Positions 1 to 9,120 of a stretch of DNA of 64,000 nt are shown in pieces. The notes under the pieces were generated by a model, which saw nothing but the letters and a program-made list of their open reading frames with translations, ran no database searches and had not been told where the DNA came from. The position numbers were made by a program, and so were the translations under genes. The stretch spans positions 204,865 through 268,864 of the forward strand of contig CATZIT010000002.1 of assembly GCA_958420225.1 (NCBI GenBank), given 5' to 3'. This stretch comes from an uncultured Roseburia sp. (GTDB lineage Bacteria > Bacillota > Clostridia > Lachnospirales > Lachnospiraceae). Every line of letters begins with the position of its first letter. Positions within the stretch are counted from its first letter, which is position 1.

Positions 1-44
1 TTGTGGCTATTGCAGTCGTGTGGGTTCAAGTCCCATCTTCCGCA
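1..44 (+). tRNA. 3' portion of a tRNA gene (long variable arm, T-arm GTGGG-TTCAAGT-CCCAT, acceptor CTTCCGC-A); truncated by the window start; serves as attL core
   Basis: T-loop consensus TTCAAGT with 5-bp T-stem, 7-nt acceptor 3' strand plus discriminator, followed by a hairpin terminator; the same core recurs at 2494-2530 and 3862-3897. Confidence 0.45.
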
Positions 45-56
45 TTCAATGAAAAG

Positions 57-97
57 ATGAGGAAACCTTTATTATAGAGGTTCCCTTATTTTTTTGT
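57..97 (+). terminator. rho-independent terminator downstream of the tRNA 3' end (stem GAGGAAACC/GGTTCCC + T-run)
   Basis: GC-rich hairpin followed by TTATTTTTTTG; homologous copies at 2543-2580 and 6234-6272. Confidence 0.6.
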
Positions 98-99
98 TA

Positions 100-975
100 T
101 TATAATGTCTGAACACTGTTGAACACGTTATTCATCTTGCTACCGATAGCTGTTTCGTAGGAACTGGAACGATTGTCCATAGTATCAGTGACATACATAT
201 AATGTTTGGCAGTTGTAGAAAAATCTTTATGTCCAGCAAACATTCTGATTTCTTCATCTGTAAGAACTTTAGATGCTCCCATGTTAGAAATGCAAGTTTT
301 GCGAATGCTATGATTTCCCTTTTGTGGTGTTTTTAACATACGATTTAATCTTCGCAATACATTATTGATTGCATCATTGTTCATTCTGGTTCCATCTTTC
401 GTAAGCATCAAATATTCAGATTTAAAACCACGCATTTGGTTTGCTTGAACAATCATTGAAAAGAATACTTTTGCTTCTTTTATCAAATAAAGTTCTCTAT
501 CCGAATTTATACTTTTTAGATATGGAGAAATTTCATATCCATTTCTTCTGATTTTCCCATTCGACAGTTTTTCATATACTTTAATTTCTTGTCTTTGAAT
601 ATGTACTGTATCTTCTTCAAAATCAGAAACCTTTAAAGCTACAACTTCTCCGACTCGTAAAGCTAATGCGAAGTTTAAGCACACTGCTAAGTAAGCTGTA
701 TTTTTTGTTTTATAGTATTGCTTTATTGCTAATTCTATAAGTCGTGTTTCTTCGTCATTGACAAATACTTGTTCAGTTACAGCTTTTGTAGGGTTAACAG
801 AAAATTTTTTTCGTGATATATTACGAATTAAACGTGATATATTTTGGGTACAAATTTTCTTTTCAATAGCATAATCAAAAAGCATATTCAACAATGACTT
901 CATTTCTTTAAACTGACGTGCAGTCAAATTATATTGTGTAATTTTATTAAGATACCAAGTTTTTAAAGTTGGCAC
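100..975 (-). CDS. tyrosine-type site-specific recombinase/integrase (Tn916-Int-like C-terminus); reading frame stays open upstream to 1305 without an in-frame ATG
   Basis: C-terminal catalytic-domain motifs (…GHKDFSTTAKHYMYV… with the catalytic Tyr region; LRVGEV; HSIRKT) plus adjacency to the tRNA 3' end; N-terminal-like sequence (DNRYRTYLPSTEKDGKRK) lies in frame upstream of the GTG start. Confidence 0.8.
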   Translation of the reverse strand: MPTLKTWYLNKITQYNLTARQFKEMKSLLNMLFDYAIEKKICTQNISRLIRNISRKKFSVNPTKAVTEQVFVNDEETRLIELAIKQYYKTKNTAYLAVCLNFALALRVGEVVALKVSDFEEDTVHIQRQEIKVYEKLSNGKIRRNGYEISPYLKSINSDRELYLIKEAKVFFSMIVQANQMRGFKSEYLMLTKDGTRMNNDAINNVLRRLNRMLKTPQKGNHSIRKTCISNMGASKVLTDEEIRMFAGHKDFSTTAKHYMYVTDTMDNRSSSYETAIGSKMNNVFNSVQTL

Positions 976-1354
976 ATCAATTTTTAAAATTTCATTTTTT
1001 ATGAATGCATCATTCTTATAAAACTTATTCCATACCCAATCTAATTTATTGGCATTAGCTAAAGAGGTATCAGTTGACTTGTATTCAAGAAAATCTGGAT
1101 ATAGATTTTCGATAGTATATACTGGTGCTTTTTGTTCAAGCTTTTTATAGAATTGAATTATTTTATTTTCAAGGTTCTCTTTTGATACACTTGTTATAGG
1201 TTTTCGTTTTCCATCCTTTTCGGTAGATGGAAGATATGTTCTATAACGATTATCTGCTTTTGAAAAATAAACAAAAATCCAATTCCAATGATGATAGTTA
1301 AAAAATTATACATAATTTAGTCTCCTTTCCTAGATGTTGTGGGGCTAGCAAAGT

Positions 1355-1428
1355 GTGACACATTTTTGACGCATGTCAAGGGTATATAAACGCGCTGCGC
1401 GCGCCCTTGACATGTTTTCAAAAATGTG
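1355..1428. repeat. long imperfect palindrome (25-bp arms CACATTTTTGACGCATGTCAAGGG / CCCTTGACATGTTTTCAAAAATGTG) around a GC-rich centre
   Basis: Read directly; lies between the integrase and the upstream hypothetical gene; no flanking T-run. Confidence 0.5.
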
Positions 1429-1457
1429 AAATATGGTAATCAAGCCCCACAAAAGCA

Positions 1458-1904
1458 TTAAGCATCAAGCTTAACGGCGTAATCTTCAGCTCTGAAGTAA
1501 ACATTATTCCTTGAATCAATAAAAGAAATTTGGAGATTTTTAAATGTTACCACGTAATCTGTTTCAGAAAGTTGATTTTCAGTAATTTTTAATGGTGCAT
1601 TTGGAATTTTAACTGAAAATCTGCATCGGGAAAGCGCATCGTATCCCTTTTGTACTTCTGCTTCAATTCGGATAAACGATGATGTTTCTCCAGTTTCTTT
1701 ATCAACGGAAGTTTCTGAACTGATTGAAATCAAATCATTTGGGACATCAGAAAGAGTCGTTTCGACGTAATTTTTCATTGCGGAATATATAGTTTTTTTC
1801 AATATTATCACCTCACAAATGATATAAAAAATGTTTATTAATTTCTCTAACAAGCTTGCTATGCTAATATTATATGGTACTAAAATTGAGTAGTCTATTA
1901 GCAA
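1458..1904 (-). CDS. hypothetical protein (island cargo, 148 aa)
   Basis: ORF only; no recognisable motif. Confidence 0.4.
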   Translation of the reverse strand: MLIDYSILVPYNISIASLLEKLINIFYIICEVIILKKTIYSAMKNYVETTLSDVPNDLISISSETSVDKETGETSSFIRIEAEVQKGYDALSRCRFSVKIPNAPLKITENQLSETDYVVTFKNLQISFIDSRNNVYFRAEDYAVKLDA

Positions 1905-2036
1905 AAGAAAACGAAAATTTTAAGTTGGAAATCAAATAGTCGAGTTGGTTCTCGAAATAATAGAGTGCAATAATTTTTTTAAAAAAATGAATATAGAAAT
2001 CATCATTTTATTAAAAATCGTTAATGCCGTGAATTG

Positions 2037-2058
2037 TCTTTGTGCAATTTGCACAAAG
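2037..2058. promoter_or_regulatory. perfect 10-bp inverted repeat CTTTGTGCAA-N2-TTGCACAAAG in a divergent AT-rich intergenic region (putative operator)
   Basis: Palindrome read directly between divergent ORFs 1904(-) and 2163(+). Confidence 0.4.
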
Positions 2059-2162
2059 CAAACTTACGATAATGTATCAGTTTGAAATTCATCTAGCAAA
2101 TAGAACATTATTAGTGTATACTTGCTCTATAAATAGAAAGTTATATGTGGAGGAGGATTATT

Positions 2163-2411
2163 ATGAATACAGTTAGAATGATTTTATGTGGAAATGTTGA
2201 AGATAGCAGAATGAATCCAAGTGAAAAGGTAGGAGTAGTATCAGTGGTTTTTGTTTCTACAGAGGAGGAAAAAATTAAGAATAAACTTAAAAAATTGCAA
2301 GATAAAAATCCTGAAAAATTTTATATGGAATACGTTACTCCATTAGATGTTGACTTAACAAGTTTAGAACACTATCCATCGATTGAAATATCAAAAAATG
2401 ATTTACAATAA
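2163..2411 (+). CDS. small hypothetical protein (82 aa)
   Basis: ORF with RBS GGAGGAGGA 6 nt upstream of ATG at 2163. Confidence 0.4.
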   Translation: MNTVRMILCGNVEDSRMNPSEKVGVVSVVFVSTEEEKIKNKLKKLQDKNPEKFYMEYVTPLDVDLTSLEHYPSIEISKNDLQ

Positions 2412-2493
2412 CAACTTTCAGTTTGTGAAGTTGAACACCTTTTTGAACACGTTATGATAGAAGTACACTGAAAGCCTTTCTGTTATTCGGTTG

Positions 2494-2530
2494 GTTTGTG
2501 GAGCAATGGGTTCAAGTCCCATCTTCCGCA
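2494..2530 (+). repeat. second copy of the tRNA 3'-end att core (GTTTGTGGAGCAATGGGTTCAAGTCCCATCTTCCGCA)
   Basis: 37-nt match to 3862-3897 and 23-nt match to 22-44. Confidence 0.7.
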
Positions 2531-2542
2531 TTATATGAAGAG

Positions 2543-2580
2543 AAAAGGAAGCCTTTCATTATGGAGGGCTTCCTTTTTTT
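2543..2580 (+). terminator. hairpin terminator homologous to the one at 57-97
   Basis: AAGGAAGCC…GGCTTCC + T7. Confidence 0.55.
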
Positions 2581-2599
2581 GCGTTGTGCTTTAACCTGT

Positions 2600-2716
2600 G
2601 CAAGACATTGTAATTTCACAATAAAGGATTATCGATTTCGGGATTATCTGGCAAATGTATTGTTGGTAGTGTATACTTATTTTACAAAGTCGGAATTTTT
2701 ATGTGTAAAGGAGAAA
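2600..2716 (+). promoter_or_regulatory. conserved ~115-bp leader module, copy A (TTCACAATAAA…GATTATCTGGCAAAT…TATTG(T)TGGT(A)GTGTATA…TTTTACAAAGTCGGAATT)
   Basis: Alignable to 3900-4026 and partly to 5560-5618; sits immediately upstream of a CDS. Confidence 0.5.
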
Positions 2717-2719
2717 CGA

Positions 2720-3238
2720 ATGAAACTACTTGTGATAGATATACAAAAAGGAATAACAGATAGTAGACTTTTTAATTTTGAAGCGTTTATTGATGATACT
2801 ATAAGAATTATAAAAGCAGCTAGAGATAATCAAATAGAGGTTATCTATTTTCAACATGATGATGGACCAGGAACGGGGTTTTCAATCGGTGATGATGACT
2901 TTGAAATTGCAGAACAAGTGATTCCAAAGGATGGGGAAAAGATATTTATAAAAAATATCAATAGTTGTTTTGGAAATAAAGATTTTACAGATTATGTTAA
3001 AGATGATAACACATTAATGATAGTGGGACTACAGACAAACTTCTGTATAGATGCAACTGTGAAATCTGCTTTTGAAAGAGGATATAAAGTAATTGTTCCA
3101 CAAGGGGCAAATTCAACATTTGATAATGACTATATGACTGGAGAAGAAACCTATAAATATTACAATGATATGATGTGGCCAACGAGATATGCTACATGTG
3201 TATCTGTTGATGAAGCAATTCAATTGATGGAAAGTTAA
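2720..3238 (+). CDS. isochorismatase-family cysteine hydrolase
   Basis: MKLLVIDIQ… start with RBS AAAGGAG; IVGLQTNFCIDATVKSAFERGYKV matches the isochorismatase-family catalytic Cys region. Confidence 0.75.
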   Translation: MKLLVIDIQKGITDSRLFNFEAFIDDTIRIIKAARDNQIEVIYFQHDDGPGTGFSIGDDDFEIAEQVIPKDGEKIFIKNINSCFGNKDFTDYVKDDNTLMIVGLQTNFCIDATVKSAFERGYKVIVPQGANSTFDNDYMTGEETYKYYNDMMWPTRYATCVSVDEAIQLMES

Positions 3239-3257
3239 ATCTGGAATTGACAAGGAG

Positions 3258-3848
3258 ATGTCTATGCATATTAAATTGAAATATGGAAATACGAATACAT
3301 TCTTTATTCGCGGAATGAGTGGAAATTTACTAGTTGATACAGACTATGCAGGGACATTGCCTACATTTTATAGAGCCATTAAAGATTGCAAAATAAAAAT
3401 AAGCGATATTACTTATATTTTGGCAACACATTATCATCCTGACCATATTGGCTTGGTAAGCGAATTGATGAATCAAGGAGTTAAGCTTCTTGTAATAGAC
3501 ATACAATGCTCCTATATACATTTTGCGGATAACATTTTTGCTAGAGATAAGAAATTGGCTTATGAACCTATTCATGCGGATAATGCAATCATCATCAGCA
3601 CAGAGGAAAGCAGAGTATTTCTTAGAAATATAGGCATTGATGGGGAAATTGTAGCCACTACAAGTCACAGTGAGGACAGCATATCTCTCATTTTAGATAG
3701 TGGCGAATGTTTTGTTGGAGATTTAGAGCCTGTTGAATATCTTGGTGCTTATGAACAAAATGATAGGCTAAAATATGATTGGGAACTTGTTATGCATTAT
3801 GCTCCTAAAAAAATTTATTATGCCCACGCAAATGAAAAAATACTGTGA
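3258..3848 (+). CDS. MBL-fold metallo-hydrolase
   Basis: HYHPDH (HxHxDH) zinc-binding motif. Confidence 0.75.
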   Translation: MSMHIKLKYGNTNTFFIRGMSGNLLVDTDYAGTLPTFYRAIKDCKIKISDITYILATHYHPDHIGLVSELMNQGVKLLVIDIQCSYIHFADNIFARDKKLAYEPIHADNAIIISTEESRVFLRNIGIDGEIVATTSHSEDSISLILDSGECFVGDLEPVEYLGAYEQNDRLKYDWELVMHYAPKKIYYAHANEKIL

Positions 3849-3861
3849 TTGACAGTTTCAA

Positions 3862-3897
3862 GTTTGTGGAGCAATGGGTTCAAGTCCCATCTTCCGC
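3862..3897 (+). repeat. third copy of the tRNA 3'-end att core
   Basis: Identical 36 nt to 2494-2529. Confidence 0.7.
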
Positions 3898-3899
3898 GT

Positions 3900-4026
3900 A
3901 AGTTCACAATAAAAGATAAGATATCAAATTCGAGATTATCTGGCAAATATAGAAGTATTGGTGTATATTTGTTTTGTAAAGCGGGATTGACCGAGCTGGT
4001 TCGATATACGAAACGGAAGGTATTGA
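3900..4026 (+). promoter_or_regulatory. conserved leader module, copy B
   Basis: Contains TTCACAATAAA, GATTATCTGGCAAAT and TATTGGTGTATATTTGTTTTGTAAAGCGGGATT. Confidence 0.5.
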
Positions 4027-4032
4027 TTGAAT

Positions 4033-4647
4033 ATGAGTAAATTCACGGAATATATAGGGAAACAATTTGGAAATCCACATGGTTTTGTTGGTAAAGTTTG
4101 TTGTGCCATAATGAATATTATTAATAAAGCTATGTATAGGAAGACAGTTTCACTGCTTCCTATATCTGATAATGATAATGTATTGGATATTGGTTATGGA
4201 AATGGATATTTGCTCAAGTGTATTTACAAGAAAGCAAAAGTTAATCTATATGGCATAGATATTTCCGAAGATATGAAAGTTCTGGCAAGTAAAAGAAACA
4301 AAAAAGCGATGAGTGACGGAAGATTGTTTCTTGAGATTGGGGATTGCTGCAAGCTGAAATATGCAGAAAAATATTTTGATGCAATTACATCAATTAATAC
4401 AGTTTATTTCTGGAGTGATACGGTAAAAGGTTTATCGGAAATATATAGAACGCTTAAAGAAGATTCTTCATTTTATAATGTTGTATATACAAAGGAATGG
4501 CTGGACAAACTTTCGTATACAGAGAAAGGGTTTAAAAAATATGAGCCGGAGCAGTTGATTGAATTTGGAAAACAAGCTGGATTTGATAATATTGAAGTTA
4601 GGGAGATTTTAAAGGGAAAAAGTTTTGTTGTGATTTATACGAAGTGA
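4033..4647 (+). CDS. class I SAM-dependent methyltransferase
   Basis: Motif I LDIGYGNGY; ORF track offers a TTG start at 4027. Confidence 0.75.
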   Translation: MSKFTEYIGKQFGNPHGFVGKVCCAIMNIINKAMYRKTVSLLPISDNDNVLDIGYGNGYLLKCIYKKAKVNLYGIDISEDMKVLASKRNKKAMSDGRLFLEIGDCCKLKYAEKYFDAITSINTVYFWSDTVKGLSEIYRTLKEDSSFYNVVYTKEWLDKLSYTEKGFKKYEPEQLIEFGKQAGFDNIEVREILKGKSFVVIYTK

Positions 4648-4692
4648 TTCTGAAAATTTATTATCAGCAAAAGCGCGGGGGAGCACAGAATT

Positions 4693-5503
4693 ATGGTTGA
4701 TAAAAGATATTATGAGAAACTGGATGGCTTTTCTTAGGTCTTAGGTGAACTGAGAAAGAAGATTGGCACACAACAGACGGATGTTATGATGACGGATGCC
4801 GTAACCCTTTGCAACGAATTATGTGAAAAATATAAAGTTCTGCCTAAAAAGGAGAGGATACATACCGAACAGATGATATTCCCGAGAGCTGCCTTTTATC
4901 TACAGATGATGAAATATATTTCACGCGAAGAAGCACTCAGTTCATCATTTAGCAGTTTTTGTATCAAGATTATGGCAAATCCATATATTTTGTGAAGGTA
5001 ATACCAGAACTACAGCAGTGTTTTTTATTAAGTATTTGCGCACATTAGGATTTGATGCTACAAATGATATTTTTGCTGAGAATGCATGGTACTTTAGGAA
5101 TTCTTTGGTAAGAGCAAATTATAATAATCTGAAAAACGGTGTTCATGAAACTACAGAATATTTAGAGTTGTTTCTTAGAAATTTGCTTTTGGATGAAAAG
5201 AATGAGCTTCATAATCGTTCCATGCACATAAGTGGGTTGCTAAAATCGGACATTGAAGATACAAAATCGGACATTGAAAAGTGTTTGGCAAATATTGACG
5301 AATCTGTTAGAAATAAAACTGCTATGCATGTAGTTACTTTGTTTGAAAAATGTGGTAGAGATACTATCTTCGGACGTTCTATTGTTGAACAGGTCACTGG
5401 ATTAAAATCATCTCGTGCATCAGAAATCATAAATCTGATGTTGGAGAATGAAATAATAGAGTCTGTTAAAGGTCATGGAAAAGGGAAATATAGATTCAAG
5501 TGA
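4693..5503 (+). pseudogene. Fic/DOC-family protein gene disrupted by an in-frame stop (TAG 4735) and a frameshift near 4915-4960
   Basis: Fic motif HIFCEGNTRTTAVFF (HxFxEGNxR) is read in frame 2, whereas the N-terminal part is in frame 1. Confidence 0.55.
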
Positions 5504-5570
5504 TTGAGAGATAAAATTCAGTTTATAAAATTGCCCAAGTGGCTATATAAAAAATGGAAAGATATATAAT

Positions 5571-5603
5571 TATTGGTGTATATTTGTTTTATCAATCGGG
5601 ATT
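5571..5603 (+). promoter_or_regulatory. conserved leader motif, copy C (TATTGGTGTATATTTGTTTTATCAATCGGGATT)
   Basis: 31/33 identical to 3957-3988; 15 nt upstream of the ATG at 5619. Confidence 0.5.
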
Positions 5604-5618
5604 TGGAGGTAAAATTAT

Positions 5619-6167
5619 ATGATACAACTTGATAATTTTGTTAATATGATGACGGGACATTTTAATAACAAAGAACAGTTTGATATGATGCAGGCAACAG
5701 GAAAAATATATCCTTATGCAGAACATATAAATACCGTTTGTAATGATAAAGTAAAAAATCTTCCTAAGGATTTCAATGGCAAATTTGTTGTTGAAGAAAG
5801 CTATTATGAAACGAACGGTAAACGTCATGCTTCACCGCATCTTTTTCTTATCACAGAAAGCGAGAATGGAATTTTGCTTTCATCTTACGAAATTCCGGAA
5901 GGAGAAGATAAAAATACATTTTCATACAAGACTATGAAAAATGTTGATTATAGTGAATTGAAAAAATCTGAAAAGTTTACCCCGGCACTTTACCATGAAA
6001 AGGATGGTGCATGGGAAGGAGGCAGCACAAGCCGGTTTTCACCAGTCATGACATTTAAACTTTGGGAAAAATTTTCGGACAGTCGTTTGGAAGTATCTGA
6101 AAGTATGGATGTTAATGGAAAGAGGACATTTGGATATGATGATCCAATCATTTATAAGAGAGTGTAA
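5619..6167 (+). CDS. CpcT/CpeT-like (DUF1001) protein
   Basis: N-terminus MTGHFNNKEQFDMMQATGKIYPYAEHINTV resembles the CpcT signature MAGDFSNQAQAF…FYAHIRV. Confidence 0.5.
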   Translation: MIQLDNFVNMMTGHFNNKEQFDMMQATGKIYPYAEHINTVCNDKVKNLPKDFNGKFVVEESYYETNGKRHASPHLFLITESENGILLSSYEIPEGEDKNTFSYKTMKNVDYSELKKSEKFTPALYHEKDGAWEGGSTSRFSPVMTFKLWEKFSDSRLEVSESMDVNGKRTFGYDDPIIYKRV

Positions 6168-6233
6168 CATGGGAGTTGCCGGTATCGCATTTGTTATGAT
6201 TAAGTCGGGAGAGAAAAAATGAGATAGCAGCTG

Positions 6234-6272
6234 AAAAAGGAAACCTTTTATGACAGAGGTTTCTTTTTTGCG
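6234..6272 (+). terminator. hairpin terminator, third homolog of the tRNA-downstream terminator
   Basis: AAAAGGAAACCTTTTATGACAGAGGTTTCTTTTTTGCG is alignable to 2543-2582. Confidence 0.55.
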
Positions 6273-6416
6273 TTCCATATCTGAGCATGATATAATGAGC
6301 GAAAGAACTACTTACTCGAACAGATGATTGGAAGTATGAAAGAAAACCCCGTGATTACAGAAGCCGATAAGAAAAAATATCTGGTATTTGAGGAGCTCAA
6401 ATAGGGGCAGTTATTA

Positions 6417-6677
6417 TGATAAGAGGACTACAAGAAGCAGATATCATGAAAGTGGCAGACTATGGCTGGATATGTGTATGAGAGTAAGGGGAAAATACAG
6501 GGATTTGTAGGATTAAACGGAGAATATATGGAAGGCATTTTTGTGTGTGATAAATTGCAGTCACAGGGCATAGGAAAACTTCTGCTGGATTTTGTAAAGA
6601 AAAGCCGGATATGCCTACATTGTTTGATGGATGCAGCTCTGGGAGGAAAACATAAAAGATTGAATATTGGAATTTGA
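6417..6677 (+). pseudogene. GNAT acetyltransferase remnant (N-terminal piece in one frame, C-terminal piece with QSQGIGKLLL in another; middle missing)
   Basis: MIRGLQEADIMKV… stops at 6480; frame-shifted continuation carries GNAT motif A. Confidence 0.45.
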
Positions 6678-6865
6678 TATGATAAAGTAATGGAAATATC
6701 TTATTTGAAAGAGGTGAAATCAATATGAAATTTATCCGAGGTAACGACTCAGTACAGTTGATGTAAACTGTTGGCAGATTGTGCTGAGGTGAAAAGAAAC
6801 TTGCTGGCAGTCGTTGACTGTACTGTCCTTATGATTGAAATACGATAATATAAAGGAGTACAGTT

Positions 6866-8551
6866 ATGCGCTATATAAAAGAAGTATTAAAGAAAAACAG
6901 AATATGGGTATTCGTCTACATTGGACTGGGTGTATTGAATGCGTTCATGGCGAATTACAAGACGGACTATTTCCAAAAGGTCATTGATGGATTGGCGGAT
7001 AGAACACTTACGTTTGCAGGAGTTGTAACATATGGAGCTATTCTGCTGGTAAATTATTGTATGAATTATCTGGATAATTATCCGGAAAAGAAATTGGAAC
7101 ATGGGATTTATCTGGATTTTAAGCTTTTGTCACTTAGAAAAATAAGTAACATTGATTATGCAGAATATCAGAAAATTGGTACTGGCAAACTTGTTCAAAG
7201 GATTGAGAATGGTTCATCAGCGGGCAGAAATGTAGTATTCGATTTCTGGCTATGTTTGATTCGGAACTTAATACCTACAATTGTCTTTGGCGTATACTTT
7301 ATTTGGAAAATAGATAAAAAAGTTACTTATGTATTGTTTGCAGGCTATCTGCTTGTTTTTGTAATAACCAACATTTTACTAAAGTTTTTATATAAAATAA
7401 AAGAAAAAATTTTGAACAGTGAGGAGCTGTTCAATCATTATCTGGTCAGAGGCTTTATGGAAATGCTGGTATTTCGTATGAGCAACCAGTTTCCAAATGA
7501 AATAAAGAAAACCCGTAATGCCAAAGAGGAGATTGTTTCATCGAAAGTAAAAATGAATATGATTCATGAAGCATTTTTTACAATATTTGCGCTGCTTGTG
7601 GCAATGTTAGATATCGGGATTCTTTTTTACGCATGGAAAACGCAAAACCTTACAGTAGGTTCTGTAGTTGCGCTGGTTACACTGATTGAAAATGCTTATA
7701 CGCCAATTGCTATTTTTAATGTACTTTATGTTCAATATAAATTGGACAGGGCGTCCTATAAGAGATTTGAAGAATTTTTAGATTTAAAAGAGGATGTTCA
7801 ATTAGCGAACGGTAATGCAATCAACACGGATGTTGGCGAAATAGCAGTCAGAAACTTATCATTCCAGTATGAGGAACGAAAAATTATTGATGATTTGAGC
7901 CTGTCCATAAAAAAGGGGGAAAAGATAGCTTTTGTAGGAGAAAGTGGTTCCGGAAAATCGACCTTGATTAAGATATTACTGGGGTTATTAAAATACAATC
8001 AGGGAAAAGTTCGCTTGGGAGACATGGAGTTAAGTGGAATTTGTCTTAATGATTTGTATGACAGAGTTAGTTATGTATCACAGGATGCCCCTGTTTTTGA
8101 TGGAACAATAAAGGAAAATCTGGTATTTGACAAAAAGGTGCCGGAAGAACATATGCTGGATGCTTTGAGGGAAGTGCAGCTATCTCATTTGGTTGAGAAT
8201 CTTGCGGAAGGATTAGATACTGAAATTGGTGAGAAAGGTACTTGCTTATCCGGCGGGGAAAAACAAAGACTTGCATTAGCACGCTTATGGTTTGAAGACA
8301 CAGACCTTGTCATTTTGGATGAAGCGACATCTGCAATGGACAATTTAACAGAAGAAAATGTAATGAAATCAGTTATGCAAAAAATGAAAGATAAAACCGT
8401 CATTGCAATTGCGCATAGATTAAATTCCGTTTCTGGTTTTGACAGAATGATTCTATTTCGCGAAGGGAAAATTGTCGGACAGGGGACGTTTGAAGAACTG
8501 CTGCGTACGGATTCTTATTTTATGGACCTGTATCATGCGAGTGTGCAATAA
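6866..8551 (+). CDS. ABC transporter ATP-binding/permease fusion protein (exporter type)
   Basis: Six TM helices followed by an NBD with Walker A GESGSGKST, signature LSGGEKQR and Walker B ILDEATSAMD. Confidence 0.9.
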   Translation: MRYIKEVLKKNRIWVFVYIGLGVLNAFMANYKTDYFQKVIDGLADRTLTFAGVVTYGAILLVNYCMNYLDNYPEKKLEHGIYLDFKLLSLRKISNIDYAEYQKIGTGKLVQRIENGSSAGRNVVFDFWLCLIRNLIPTIVFGVYFIWKIDKKVTYVLFAGYLLVFVITNILLKFLYKIKEKILNSEELFNHYLVRGFMEMLVFRMSNQFPNEIKKTRNAKEEIVSSKVKMNMIHEAFFTIFALLVAMLDIGILFYAWKTQNLTVGSVVALVTLIENAYTPIAIFNVLYVQYKLDRASYKRFEEFLDLKEDVQLANGNAINTDVGEIAVRNLSFQYEERKIIDDLSLSIKKGEKIAFVGESGSGKSTLIKILLGLLKYNQGKVRLGDMELSGICLNDLYDRVSYVSQDAPVFDGTIKENLVFDKKVPEEHMLDALREVQLSHLVENLAEGLDTEIGEKGTCLSGGEKQRLALARLWFEDTDLVILDEATSAMDNLTEENVMKSVMQKMKDKTVIAIAHRLNSVSGFDRMILFREGKIVGQGTFEELLRTDSYFMDLYHASVQ

Positions 8552-8574
8552 TTGGATTTAAAAGGTAGAAGAAA

Positions 8575-9120
8575 ATGGAATATAAAGAAAAAGTAGTTTT
8601 GAAAAATGGTCAGGATTGCATCATACGAAATGCCATCTATGAAGATGGTTCTGAGATGTCGGATTTGTATGCAGTGACACATAGTGAATCTGATTATCTG
8701 CTTTCTTACCCGGAAGAGCATATTTTGGATGCAGAGGGCGAGAGCGAATTTCTTCAAAAAAGAGCCGAAAGTGATAACGAAGTAATGTTAGTAGCTGTTG
8801 TAAATGACAGAATAGTTGCAACAGCAGGTATTTCTGCGGTGGGGAACAAGTATAAGGTCAGACATCGTGCTGAATTTGGAATTGATGTTGTAGAGGAATA
8901 CTGGGGGCTTGGTATCGGGAAGGCGATGATGAAAGCTTGTGTGCAATGTGCCCAAAATGCAGGGTATCAGCAATTAGAGTTGGAGGTAGTTGCAGAGAAC
9001 CAAAGAGCAGAGAATATGTATAAAAGCATTGGATTTGTGGAGTATGGACGTAATCCGCTGGGATTTATTTCAAAGTATTCCGGTCCGCAGGAACTGGTGT
9101 ATATGAGATTGATATTATGA
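8575..9120 (+). CDS. GNAT family N-acetyltransferase
   Basis: GNAT motif A region LGIGKAMM… and overall length and size. Confidence 0.7.
   Translation: MEYKEKVVLKNGQDCIIRNAIYEDGSEMSDLYAVTHSESDYLLSYPEEHILDAEGESEFLQKRAESDNEVMLVAVVNDRIVATAGISAVGNKYKVRHRAEFGIDVVEEYWGLGIGKAMMKACVQCAQNAGYQQLELEVVAENQRAENMYKSIGFVEYGRNPLGFISKYSGPQELVYMRLIL

Follow-up and report, generated by a model that had tools for sequence, protein, structure and literature searches.

Introduction

Tandem arrays of mobile elements in the Firmicutes have been attributed to a route in which an integrative and mobilizable element (IME) integrates, decays to a cis-mobilizable element (CIME) and is joined by a newly accreted element (PMC12084326, a Faecalibacterium survey; PMC5704250, by Guedon and colleagues, in the portion of that report used here). 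Here we describe an array of this known kind, a product of tandem IME/CIME accretion and decay, at a tRNA-Leu(AAG) gene in a 64-kb stretch of DNA from a Roseburia sp. (contig CATZIT010000002.1; hereafter, the window), where a repeated module of ~90 bp precedes a succession of different genes. The window contains three elements in tandem (E1, E2 and E3) and probable fragments of a fourth, all of them damaged by deletions that kept the module and the cargo. We consider it probable that the module provides a cargo slot with its promoter, 5' leader and ribosome-binding site, and that this slot belongs to small Lachnospiraceae elements of one family (4-5 kb), which were stacked at this locus by accretion and subsequently decayed.

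The locus shares with the arrays of those two reports a tyrosine integrase at a tRNA 3' end, units delimited by direct repeats of that 3' end, the retention of adaptive cargo, the position of the newest element beside the tRNA gene with older ones eroded in their recombination and replication genes, and a rolling-circle initiator-type protein as the candidate for replication and relaxase functions. The elements of the window differ in being very small. Their replication protein (Rep; PF23343, ORF2/G2P type) lies outside the rolling-circle replication families Rep_trans, Rep_2, PHA00330 and Viral_Rep named in the portion of PMC5704250 used here. It is also the only mobilization or relaxase candidate that we identified, with no coupling protein and no other relaxase seen, and the cargo is usually a single open reading frame (ORF) lodged between a conserved promoter-leader and an att arm. 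The element family itself, defined by an integrase, a PF23343 Rep and a one-gene slot, seems undescribed.

Prochlorococcus tycheposons, as presented in the sections of bioRxiv 10.1101/2020.12.28.424599 drawn on here, likewise combine a tyrosine recombinase with a small replication module, integrate at tRNA genes and carry plug-in cargo, and their repeated integration pushes older copies inward to the island, leaving partial tRNAs and degenerated remnants. They reside in other hosts, however, and encode unrelated replication functions (primase, helicase or polymerase) where the present elements encode an HUH-type Rep; they often carry whole operons of several genes, as long as 10 kb, as cargo, and those sections describe no conserved promoter-leader before it. 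The ssrA-targeted tandem islands of Dehalococcoides are much larger and use a different integrase and a different target (PMC3146451, in the portion used here). The integron platform (intI, attI, the promoter Pc and attC cassettes) resembles the locus in its short single-gene units, its repeated site, its variation between strains, its cargo bounded near ORF ends and the provision of expression signals by the element. It departs from the locus in relying on one shared Pc, whereas each unit of the window has its own promoter-like sequence, and in its attC hairpins, the repeated site of the window being a tRNA 3' end and its units deriving from whole int-rep elements.

Results

A repeated module precedes different genes behind a tRNA-Leu gene

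The first-pass annotation of the locus had outlined a leader alignable over ~115 bp, with two copies placed directly after copies of an att core and a third, partial one, each of them preceding a different cargo gene. The repeat itself is real and well above chance. A single-sequence nhmmer search with copy A over the 64-kb window recovered copy B (E=1.2e-6), and the two copies align (2610-2697 versus 3898-3988) with 69/92 identities and 5 gap positions. A hidden Markov model (HMM) built only from A and B identified, across the same window, the partial copy C (E=4e-3) and a fourth, full-length copy that had been overlooked, Z (2064-2140; E=5e-5), and beyond these four it returned no match better than E=4. 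All four copies lie on the plus strand within 3.5 kb, present pairwise identities of 55-75% and have a different gene downstream. The alignable module spans ~90 bp rather than ~115. The last 16-45 nt before each ATG can be aligned only in part, and the stretch common to C and B (5571-5603 versus 3956-3988) is identical at 30/33 positions instead of the 31/33 first reported.

The att core (GGGTTCAAGTCCCATCTTCCGC) corresponds to the 3' end of tRNA-Leu(AAG) and has exactly three occurrences (22-43, 2508-2529 and 3876-3897), with none expected by chance. Direct adjacency to a core holds for copy B, which abuts core 3, but not for copy A, which begins ~80 nt past core 2 and is separated from it by a terminator-like hairpin (2547-2580).

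The proximity and common strand of the copies could be taken as the outcome of a local segmental duplication of DNA flanking one gene family, an outcome that the first-pass annotation had named as counting against its reading. The genes downstream are nevertheless unrelated in Pfam, and copies A and B, but not Z, are closer to modules in complete or decayed elements of other genomes (87-90% identity) than to the other copies in the window. The nearest relative of module A is the module of L016 (87% over 71 nt; L numbers designate the comparison sequences) and that of module B is the module of L015 (90% over 49 nt), while module Z shows only 74% identity to the L016 module. This pattern indicates that the three copies come from different lineages of the family, making a local duplication extremely improbable. 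We therefore regard the copies as orthologous parts, now diverged, of elements that are siblings, and neither as local duplications nor as recombination sites. Outside the window, the module was found before different genes in different genomes, which is the check that the first-pass annotation had proposed.

The module is part of a family of small integrative elements

Intact counterparts of E1 were identified in L006, L008 and L009, contigs in which the same proteins are encoded. The comparison relies to a large extent on metagenome contigs, although the same arrangements recur in independent samples. The intact elements, found in gut Lachnospiraceae, open with the tRNA-Leu core and a terminator hairpin, followed on the minus strand by genes for the integrase (446 aa) and Rep (260 aa) and by ORFs of 127 and 114 aa. 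An intergenic region of 360 bp containing a perfect palindrome (TTTGTGCAAtTTGCACAAA) and module Z leads into the right half, which is encoded on the plus strand and comprises the 82-aa ORF, an arm beginning with AGTTTGTGAAG and bearing two TTGAACAC repeats, and the core again. In intact elements, the module lies between the two divergent gene sets, in front of the one or two cargo ORFs, which alone are read rightward. The same order of parts was observed in L016, L015/L021, L052, L042, L044 and L065. The palindrome is conserved in L016, L030, L042, L044, L052 and L065, and a half-site remnant of it persists to the left of module A (2592-2598). Within the first 8 kb of the window, TGAACAC sites occur only as the P'-arm pair and the P-arm pair (four in total), and these repeats and the TTGAACAC repeats are putative arm sites of the integrase.

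Rep is a protein of the rolling-circle type (PF23343) that is also matched as a replication initiator in PHROGs. The integrase yielded only generic phage-integrase matches (PF00589) in searches of Pfam and PHROGs, which included no IntI-specific model. In L016 and L052, the DNA past the last core consists of an ordinary terminator without the module. An origin of the module as a copy of the promoter or 5' end of the target tRNA gene was considered and discarded, the native promoter region of tRNA-Leu(AAG) being unrelated to it. Together, the plain terminator and the unrelated native promoter indicate that the module is element DNA and not chromosomal DNA.

Homologues of the integrase with up to 65% identity belong to other element types, such as IMEs with FtsK and Rep_trans, which lack the module, so that the integrase is no marker for this element family. 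Among homologues of Rep with up to 60% identity, gene order and the divergent position of the cargo are kept, but the sequence of the module is not. An nhmmer search for the module among these Rep homologues found none, and it also missed the module of L052, clearly homologous though diverged, which was spotted by eye.

Rep relatives with 57-60% identity (L055-L060 and L061-L064) present the order small ORF, ORF, Rep, integrase. They are accompanied by other integrases (in one case with a Tn916-type Xis), other targets and no module sequence, indicating that integration modules have been exchanged among the members of this wider family. About 170 bp upstream (~3547-3630 in L005/L006, before the start of the window), a tRNA-Leu(CAG) gene in divergent orientation has the same 3' end with two mismatches. 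The L016 element resides in tRNA-Leu(CAG), with the neighbouring tRNA-Leu(AAG) empty, which makes both genes possible targets. A single short contig was examined for a circular junction and had none, and the L065 element is present in integrated form.

A variable cargo slot lies between module and arm

Across the pattern matches and protein-anchored look-ups, the position behind the module is constant within the element, and the genes that occupy it vary. They encode the 82-aa protein of E1 and of the L006 type, a CN-hydrolase (L017, L018, L023, L025, L027, L042 and L046-L049), a GNAT-methyltransferase fusion (L044), an A_deaminase-family protein (L065), a NUDIX hydrolase (L016), an AAA/kinase-like protein (L015 and L021, with an extra 97-aa ORF in L015) and an SdpI-like protein (L052, whose module is diverged). 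An isochorismatase-family hydrolase is paired with a metallo-beta-lactamase-fold (MBL) protein behind module A of the window and with a TfoX_N protein in L019, while the window shows a methyltransferase and Fic set behind module B and a 182-aa ORF behind module C. At least four different cargoes (the 82-aa ORF, the CN-hydrolase, the GNAT-methyltransferase and the deaminase) occur on backbones that are 97-99% identical, and several more on related backbones. A PADLOC analysis of the cargo genes returned no convincing defence assignment except for the Fic gene, which is intact in L006 (366 aa) and matches the candidate defence family PDC-S72 (E=2e-198).

The same P arm follows every cargo in related elements, and the exact same 114-aa protein lies beside the module in elements with other cargo and in other chromosomal contexts. 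This protein is identical, for instance, in the GNAT-methyltransferase and CN-hydrolase elements, the flanking chromosomal genes of which differ, and the deaminase element is nearly the same in its module and in the order of its backbone parts. Between L006 and the CN-hydrolase elements, identity of 97-99% extends to ...GCTCTATAAAT and returns at the arm. On the right, the cargo junction lies 1-8 nt past the stop codon, at TTC(C/A)AGTTTGTGArG; on the left, it lies within the leader or the ribosome-binding site, in five cases behind a shared ribosome-binding stretch, GTGGAGG(TAAA), a few nucleotides before the ATG. The leaders are mosaic, with AAATCGGAAGTTATA common to the 82-aa and deaminase versions and GTTATTTGTrGAG common to the CN-hydrolase and GNAT-methyltransferase versions. 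Such mosaicism suggests homologous exchange within two conserved flanks. Cargo would in this way move between backbones by homologous recombination in the module or leader on the left and in the arm on the right, and a tandem array such as that of the window would favour such exchange.

A wastewater metagenome contig (L004, 2028-2093) harbours an isochorismatase-MBL pair that is 99.5% identical to that of the window and lies directly downstream of a MatE gene. This pair keeps only ~35 nt of the module leader (AAATCGGGATTTTTATGTGTAAAGGAG), and represents either a rearranged remnant or a hint at the origin of the leader.

Proposed accretion and decay at tRNA-Leu(AAG)

The features of the array are listed in Table 1. 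The loci of L005, L006 and L009 align to the window from position 1. Window positions 1-1271 correspond to 3837-5107 of L006, and positions 1263-2529 to 6599-7865, revealing a 1.49-kb deletion in E1 (L006 5107-6599) with a junction at 1263-1271 that displays 9 bp of microhomology. The deletion removed the N-terminus of the integrase, the Rep gene and most of the 127-aa ORF, so that even the newest element of this strain is immobile on its own. E2 (2531-3897) keeps the stump of its terminator-like hairpin (T2), half of the palindrome, module A, two cargo genes and a truncated arm. The integrase gene, the Rep gene and the small ORFs expected after T2 have been deleted, and all TTGAACAC repeats are gone. 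In E3, the Fic gene is broken by an 800-bp deletion with respect to L006 (junction at 4940); other strains have a 120-aa ORF between the methyltransferase and Fic genes. The end points of the deletions differ between units, indicating that the deletions were independent.

Table 1. Annotated features of the tRNA-Leu(AAG) array, in window coordinates
Feature	Position	Strand	Remarks
tRNA-Leu(AAG) 3' end, chromosomal	1..44	+	Contains att core 1 (22-43); full tRNA called in syntenic L005, L006 and L009
T1 terminator-like hairpin	58..100	+	GGAAACCTTT..AGAGGTTCCC then T-run; marks left (P') end of E1
E1 tyrosine integrase gene, truncated	100..1312	-	ORF 100-975 = C-terminal 291 aa; Pfam PF00589
P' arm	110..131	+	Two direct TGAACAC repeats (TGAACACtgTTGAACACGTTAT); putative integrase arm-type sites
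114-aa backbone ORF of E1	1458..1802	-	First gene of leftward operon
Perfect palindrome	2039..2057	.	TTTGTGCAA-T-TTGCACAAA; just left of module Z; putative operator
Module Z, canonical in-element copy	2064..2140	+	Putative -35 CTAGCA 2093-2098, -10 TATACT 2117-2122
E1 cargo, 82-aa ORF	2163..2411	+	Other genes in its place on near-identical backbones
E1 P arm	2420..2529	+	Starts AGTTTGTGAAG; TTGAACAC at 2431-2438 and 2443-2450; ends in att core 2 (2508-2529)
T2 terminator-like hairpin (2547-2580), left end of remnant E2	2531..2600	+	84% identical to core-plus-T1 segment
Module A	2609..2698	+	Putative -35 CTGGCA 2648-2653, -10 TATACT 2672-2677
E2 cargo: isochorismatase-family hydrolase (2720-3238) and MBL-fold protein (3264-3848)	2720..3848	+	Pfam PF00857, PF00753
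E2 truncated P arm fused to att core 3	3861..3897	+	Without TTGAACAC repeats
Module B	3898..3990	+	Abuts core 3, begins E3; putative -35 CTGGCA 3940-3945, -10 TATATT 3964-3969
E3 cargo: SAM methyltransferase (4033-4647) and Fic-family gene (fragments 4786-4995, 5018-5503)	4033..5503	+	Pfam
Partial module C	5555..5603	+	From -35 onward; putative -35 TGGAAA 5555-5560, -10 TATATT 5579-5584
182-aa ORF downstream of copy C	5619..6167	+	Without family assignment (Pfam)
T3 third terminator-like hairpin (6239-6270) and ~40 nt upstream	6195..6280	+	Homologous to left end of L015 element

Comparison between strains locates the boundaries of these units at the att repeats. Positions 3862-3897 are a 36-bp exact repeat of positions 2494-2529, and L006, L008 and L009 lack window positions 2530-3861, exactly between the two. 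Other DNA is found upstream of core 3 in L014 (a variant MBL unit) and in L013, where an IS91-family (Y2_Tnp) transposase gene (1-912) lies upstream of the core that precedes module B. The stumps of E2 (terminator, palindrome remnant and arm) align to parts of the element, and T1 shows homology with T2 and T3 as well as with the L015 element at its left end. The locus hence displays att direct repeats of the target end, an integrase remnant beside the tRNA-Leu(AAG) end, units related to intact elements and presence/absence breakpoints at att repeats. In the history that we propose, successive elements would have integrated into the 3' end of tRNA-Leu(AAG), with new arrivals pushing older ones outward, and independent deletions would then have stripped the integrase and Rep parts while sparing module and cargo. 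This would have resulted in E1 retaining module Z and the 82-aa ORF, E2 retaining module A and the isochorismatase-MBL pair, E3 retaining module B and the methyltransferase and Fic genes, and copy C being left with the 182-aa ORF.

The first-pass annotation had also suggested that the module could be the recombination junction of a cassette system using the tRNA-end core like an attC-type site. As a description of the locus this is apt, with different genes behind the module and one unit present or absent from core to core. An attC-type mechanism is not supported, because the units are whole tRNA-integrating elements, stacked and then eroded, and the module is internal to them and not at a crossover. 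In its full form, the proposal would have the core act as an attC-type site, the module as an attI-like site or cassette junction, and the integrase move single cassettes. It accounts for an array that reads core, module, gene, core, module, gene, for an isochorismatase-MBL unit that is present or absent exactly from core to core, and for cargo bounded near ORF ends, and the cargo content (GNAT, MBL, NUDIX, isochorismatase and methyltransferase) resembles that of integron cassettes. The units are, however, homologous to whole int-rep elements and keep stumps of the terminator and of the arm and a remnant of the palindrome, and the cores consist of the 3' end of the target tRNA, in the manner of ordinary tRNA-targeting integrases. 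What recurs is a direct repeat of this tRNA end, 22-36 bp long, and an inverted-repeat scan of positions 1-9000 detected no attC imperfect palindrome after the cargo genes. Each unit presents its own promoter-like module in place of a single platform promoter, the crossover point of intact elements never coincides with the module, and no feature of an integron-type integrase was seen among the matches, which are of the generic PF00589 kind (no IntI-specific model was run). Moreover, E2 lacks both sets of TTGAACAC repeats, and either ancestry or the 36-bp direct repeats could account for its absence from some strains. We therefore deem an integron-like system very unlikely, and favour the accretion and decay of tRNA-targeting elements.

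The module as a probable promoter and leader of the cargo

An alignment of eight module variants revealed two invariant blocks, CT(G/A)GCAAAT and GTGTATA(C/T)TT. A promoter scan matched these blocks as CTGGCA, CTAGCA or TGGAAA and TATACT or TATATT, separated by an 18-nt spacer. The match is modest (9/12), and the -35 and -10 blocks with their 18-nt gap are conserved among homologues, as in a sigma-70/SigA promoter. Past the -10 block follows a leader, AAATCGrrAkTT, and usually a GGAGG ribosome-binding site; in copy C, the leader and ribosome-binding site after the -10 read TCGGGATTTGGAGGTAAA. For the one transcription unit that runs rightward in the element, the module is the sole candidate promoter. 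In E2, the T2 hairpin sits between the upstream unit and module A, and the core-adjacent hairpin would end both convergent units. These features are consistent with the module firing as a sigma-70-type promoter (CTRGCA-18-TATAYT) and supplying the translation start region. A shared promoter/operator, one of the roles envisaged in the earlier annotation, thus finds support in the anatomy of the module, namely its block spacing, its leader with ribosome-binding site and its divergent intergenic position. We know of no shared promoter module in the ssrA islands of Dehalococcoides.

A structured 5' untranslated region had been put forward as well, and would take the form of a riboswitch, attenuator or small RNA common to the cargo genes. 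The location of the module just upstream of start codons would suit such an RNA, as would the occurrence of the B leader motif ATTGRCCGAGCT in two other elements. Yet minimum-free-energy z-scores range from -1.6 to +0.9 across both strands, each copy folds differently, and RNAalifold predicted 0 pairs on the 8 variants, a number that affords low power. Rfam searches returned no match at E<=1 over 9 kb, nor at E<=10 on the isolated B leader, and conservation peaks in blocks located upstream of the point where transcription likely begins. A shared RNA structure consequently commands very little credence as an explanation of the repeat.

The leader motif ATTG(A/G)CCGAGCT is found in the B leader (3983-3996), in L030 (reverse strand, first 60 nt) and in L015 (~6320-6340, reverse strand). 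The L030 element encodes an integrase with 88% identity, and the L015 copy lies in an intergenic region inside the cargo. The motif recalls the acceptor and D-arm of a type-II tRNA, and the tRNA-like appearance of the B leader (GCGGGATTGACCGAGCTGG) was dismissed after ARAGORN and Rfam gave no match.

A further possibility is that the module serves mainly as a protein-binding control region, be it the double-strand origin or oriT of Rep or an operator switch with a leftward promoter for the 114-aa and 127-aa ORFs, rep and int. Its divergent intergenic position beside a perfect palindrome agrees with this notion, and a Rep-type protein needs an origin somewhere in 4 kb. The minus strand contains TTGCCA or TTGCTA, a 4-5/6 match to the -35 consensus (3946-3918 in the scan), with a TG-TAcaTT-type -10 located 17 nt away in Z, B and L015 (partly read from the alignment), and a partial inverted repeat, GCAAATATA..TATATTTGC, spans both blocks in the fold of B. 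A better-placed leftward promoter is, however, found nearer the 114-aa gene (TAGACT-17-TATAAT, 1897-1869), and no familiar nick-site consensus was apparent in the region. Decayed units without leftward genes or Rep, furthermore, keep the module beside intact cargo ORFs, a pattern that fits selection for cargo expression. We judge it unlikely that control of Rep or of the leftward genes is the main role of the module, but this reading is compatible with a promoter and could constitute an added function.

Several observations weigh against the interpretation of the module as the cargo promoter of stacked and decayed elements. The -35 element is weak (3-4/6), and promoter-like sites are common in this AT-rich DNA, with 47 found against 35 expected in shuffles. 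The upstream half of the module (TATC..TTC..GATTATCT) is also conserved, and a simple promoter needs no such half; this half may belong to an operator or to a promoter that reads leftward from the opposite strand (TTGCYA-17-TAyaTT), immediately downstream of which lies the palindrome. At the level of the array, the right end of E3 (arm and core) was not found, and copy C lacks the upstream half and has no adjacent core or arm, so that its origin in a separate element is a guess. Lastly, recombination in the flanks explains the exchange of cargo between backbones, but not the first capture of cargo so near the ORF ends, and the bounding of the cargo slot almost exactly at ORF ends is the one mildly unusual feature of the family. 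This feature could be accommodated if the Int-Rep elements were a dedicated single-ORF shuttle and expression platform, in which the element provides promoter, ribosome-binding site and att arm, and a specific mechanism, involving for example the HUH-type Rep or the integrase, captures and exchanges ORFs at their exact ends in place of general recombination with later trimming. We hold such a dedicated mechanism to be unlikely; if it did operate, the tRNA-Leu stacks would amount to an integron-like reservoir of self-expressed genes in gut Lachnospiraceae.

Distribution and significance of the element family

The two-block pattern of the module was identified in only two GTDB species-representative genomes, those of an Acetatifactor sp. 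metagenome-assembled genome (MAG) and a Lachnospiraceae MAG. A related pattern was detected in 12 metagenome stretches, 2 of which are chance-like. The search of viral contigs with the module pattern yielded 0 matches, and BLAST searches with the whole 4-kb element returned nothing in phages and, among plasmids, only a 78-bp piece in a Roseburia plasmid.

The history that emerges from the locus is one of repeated insertion at a tRNA-Leu gene of a gut Roseburia, by miniature mobile elements that all belong to one family, and the host would have retained expressed cargo and shed mobility genes. The family would thereby provide a compact vehicle for the spread among Lachnospiraceae of small-molecule-modifying enzymes and a candidate defence gene. 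Its module and arm motif offer a simple sequence handle for mining cargo and, should the module be confirmed as a promoter with ribosome-binding site, it might become an expression part for anaerobes that are hard to engineer.

Copy C and the right flank of the array

The 182-aa ORF behind copy C had been labelled CpcT-like, a designation not upheld by Pfam, where no CpcT match was obtained even at E<=5. The pairing of this gene with copy C as a mobile cassette was also rejected, since its absence in L006-type loci corresponds to a plain deletion of window positions 5519-5955 that cuts through the ORF.

The homology of T3 to the left end of the L015 element hints at further eroded units, and the T3 stretch is probably, judging by this similarity, the left stump of a fourth element. 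The match to this left end includes the 40 nt upstream of T3, and the L015 stretches concerned are 7530-7620 and 5760-5800. The L015 element itself occupies a non-tRNA site, between imperfect direct repeats of ~38 bp, and its tRNA-type core is cut down to GGGTTCAA, a setting that suggests a second type of target site in the element family. Further to the right, between T3 and an ABC transporter gene, a 71-aa GNAT fragment (6462-6677) is an apparent pseudogene, and the region 6280-6860 looks like further eroded mobile DNA.

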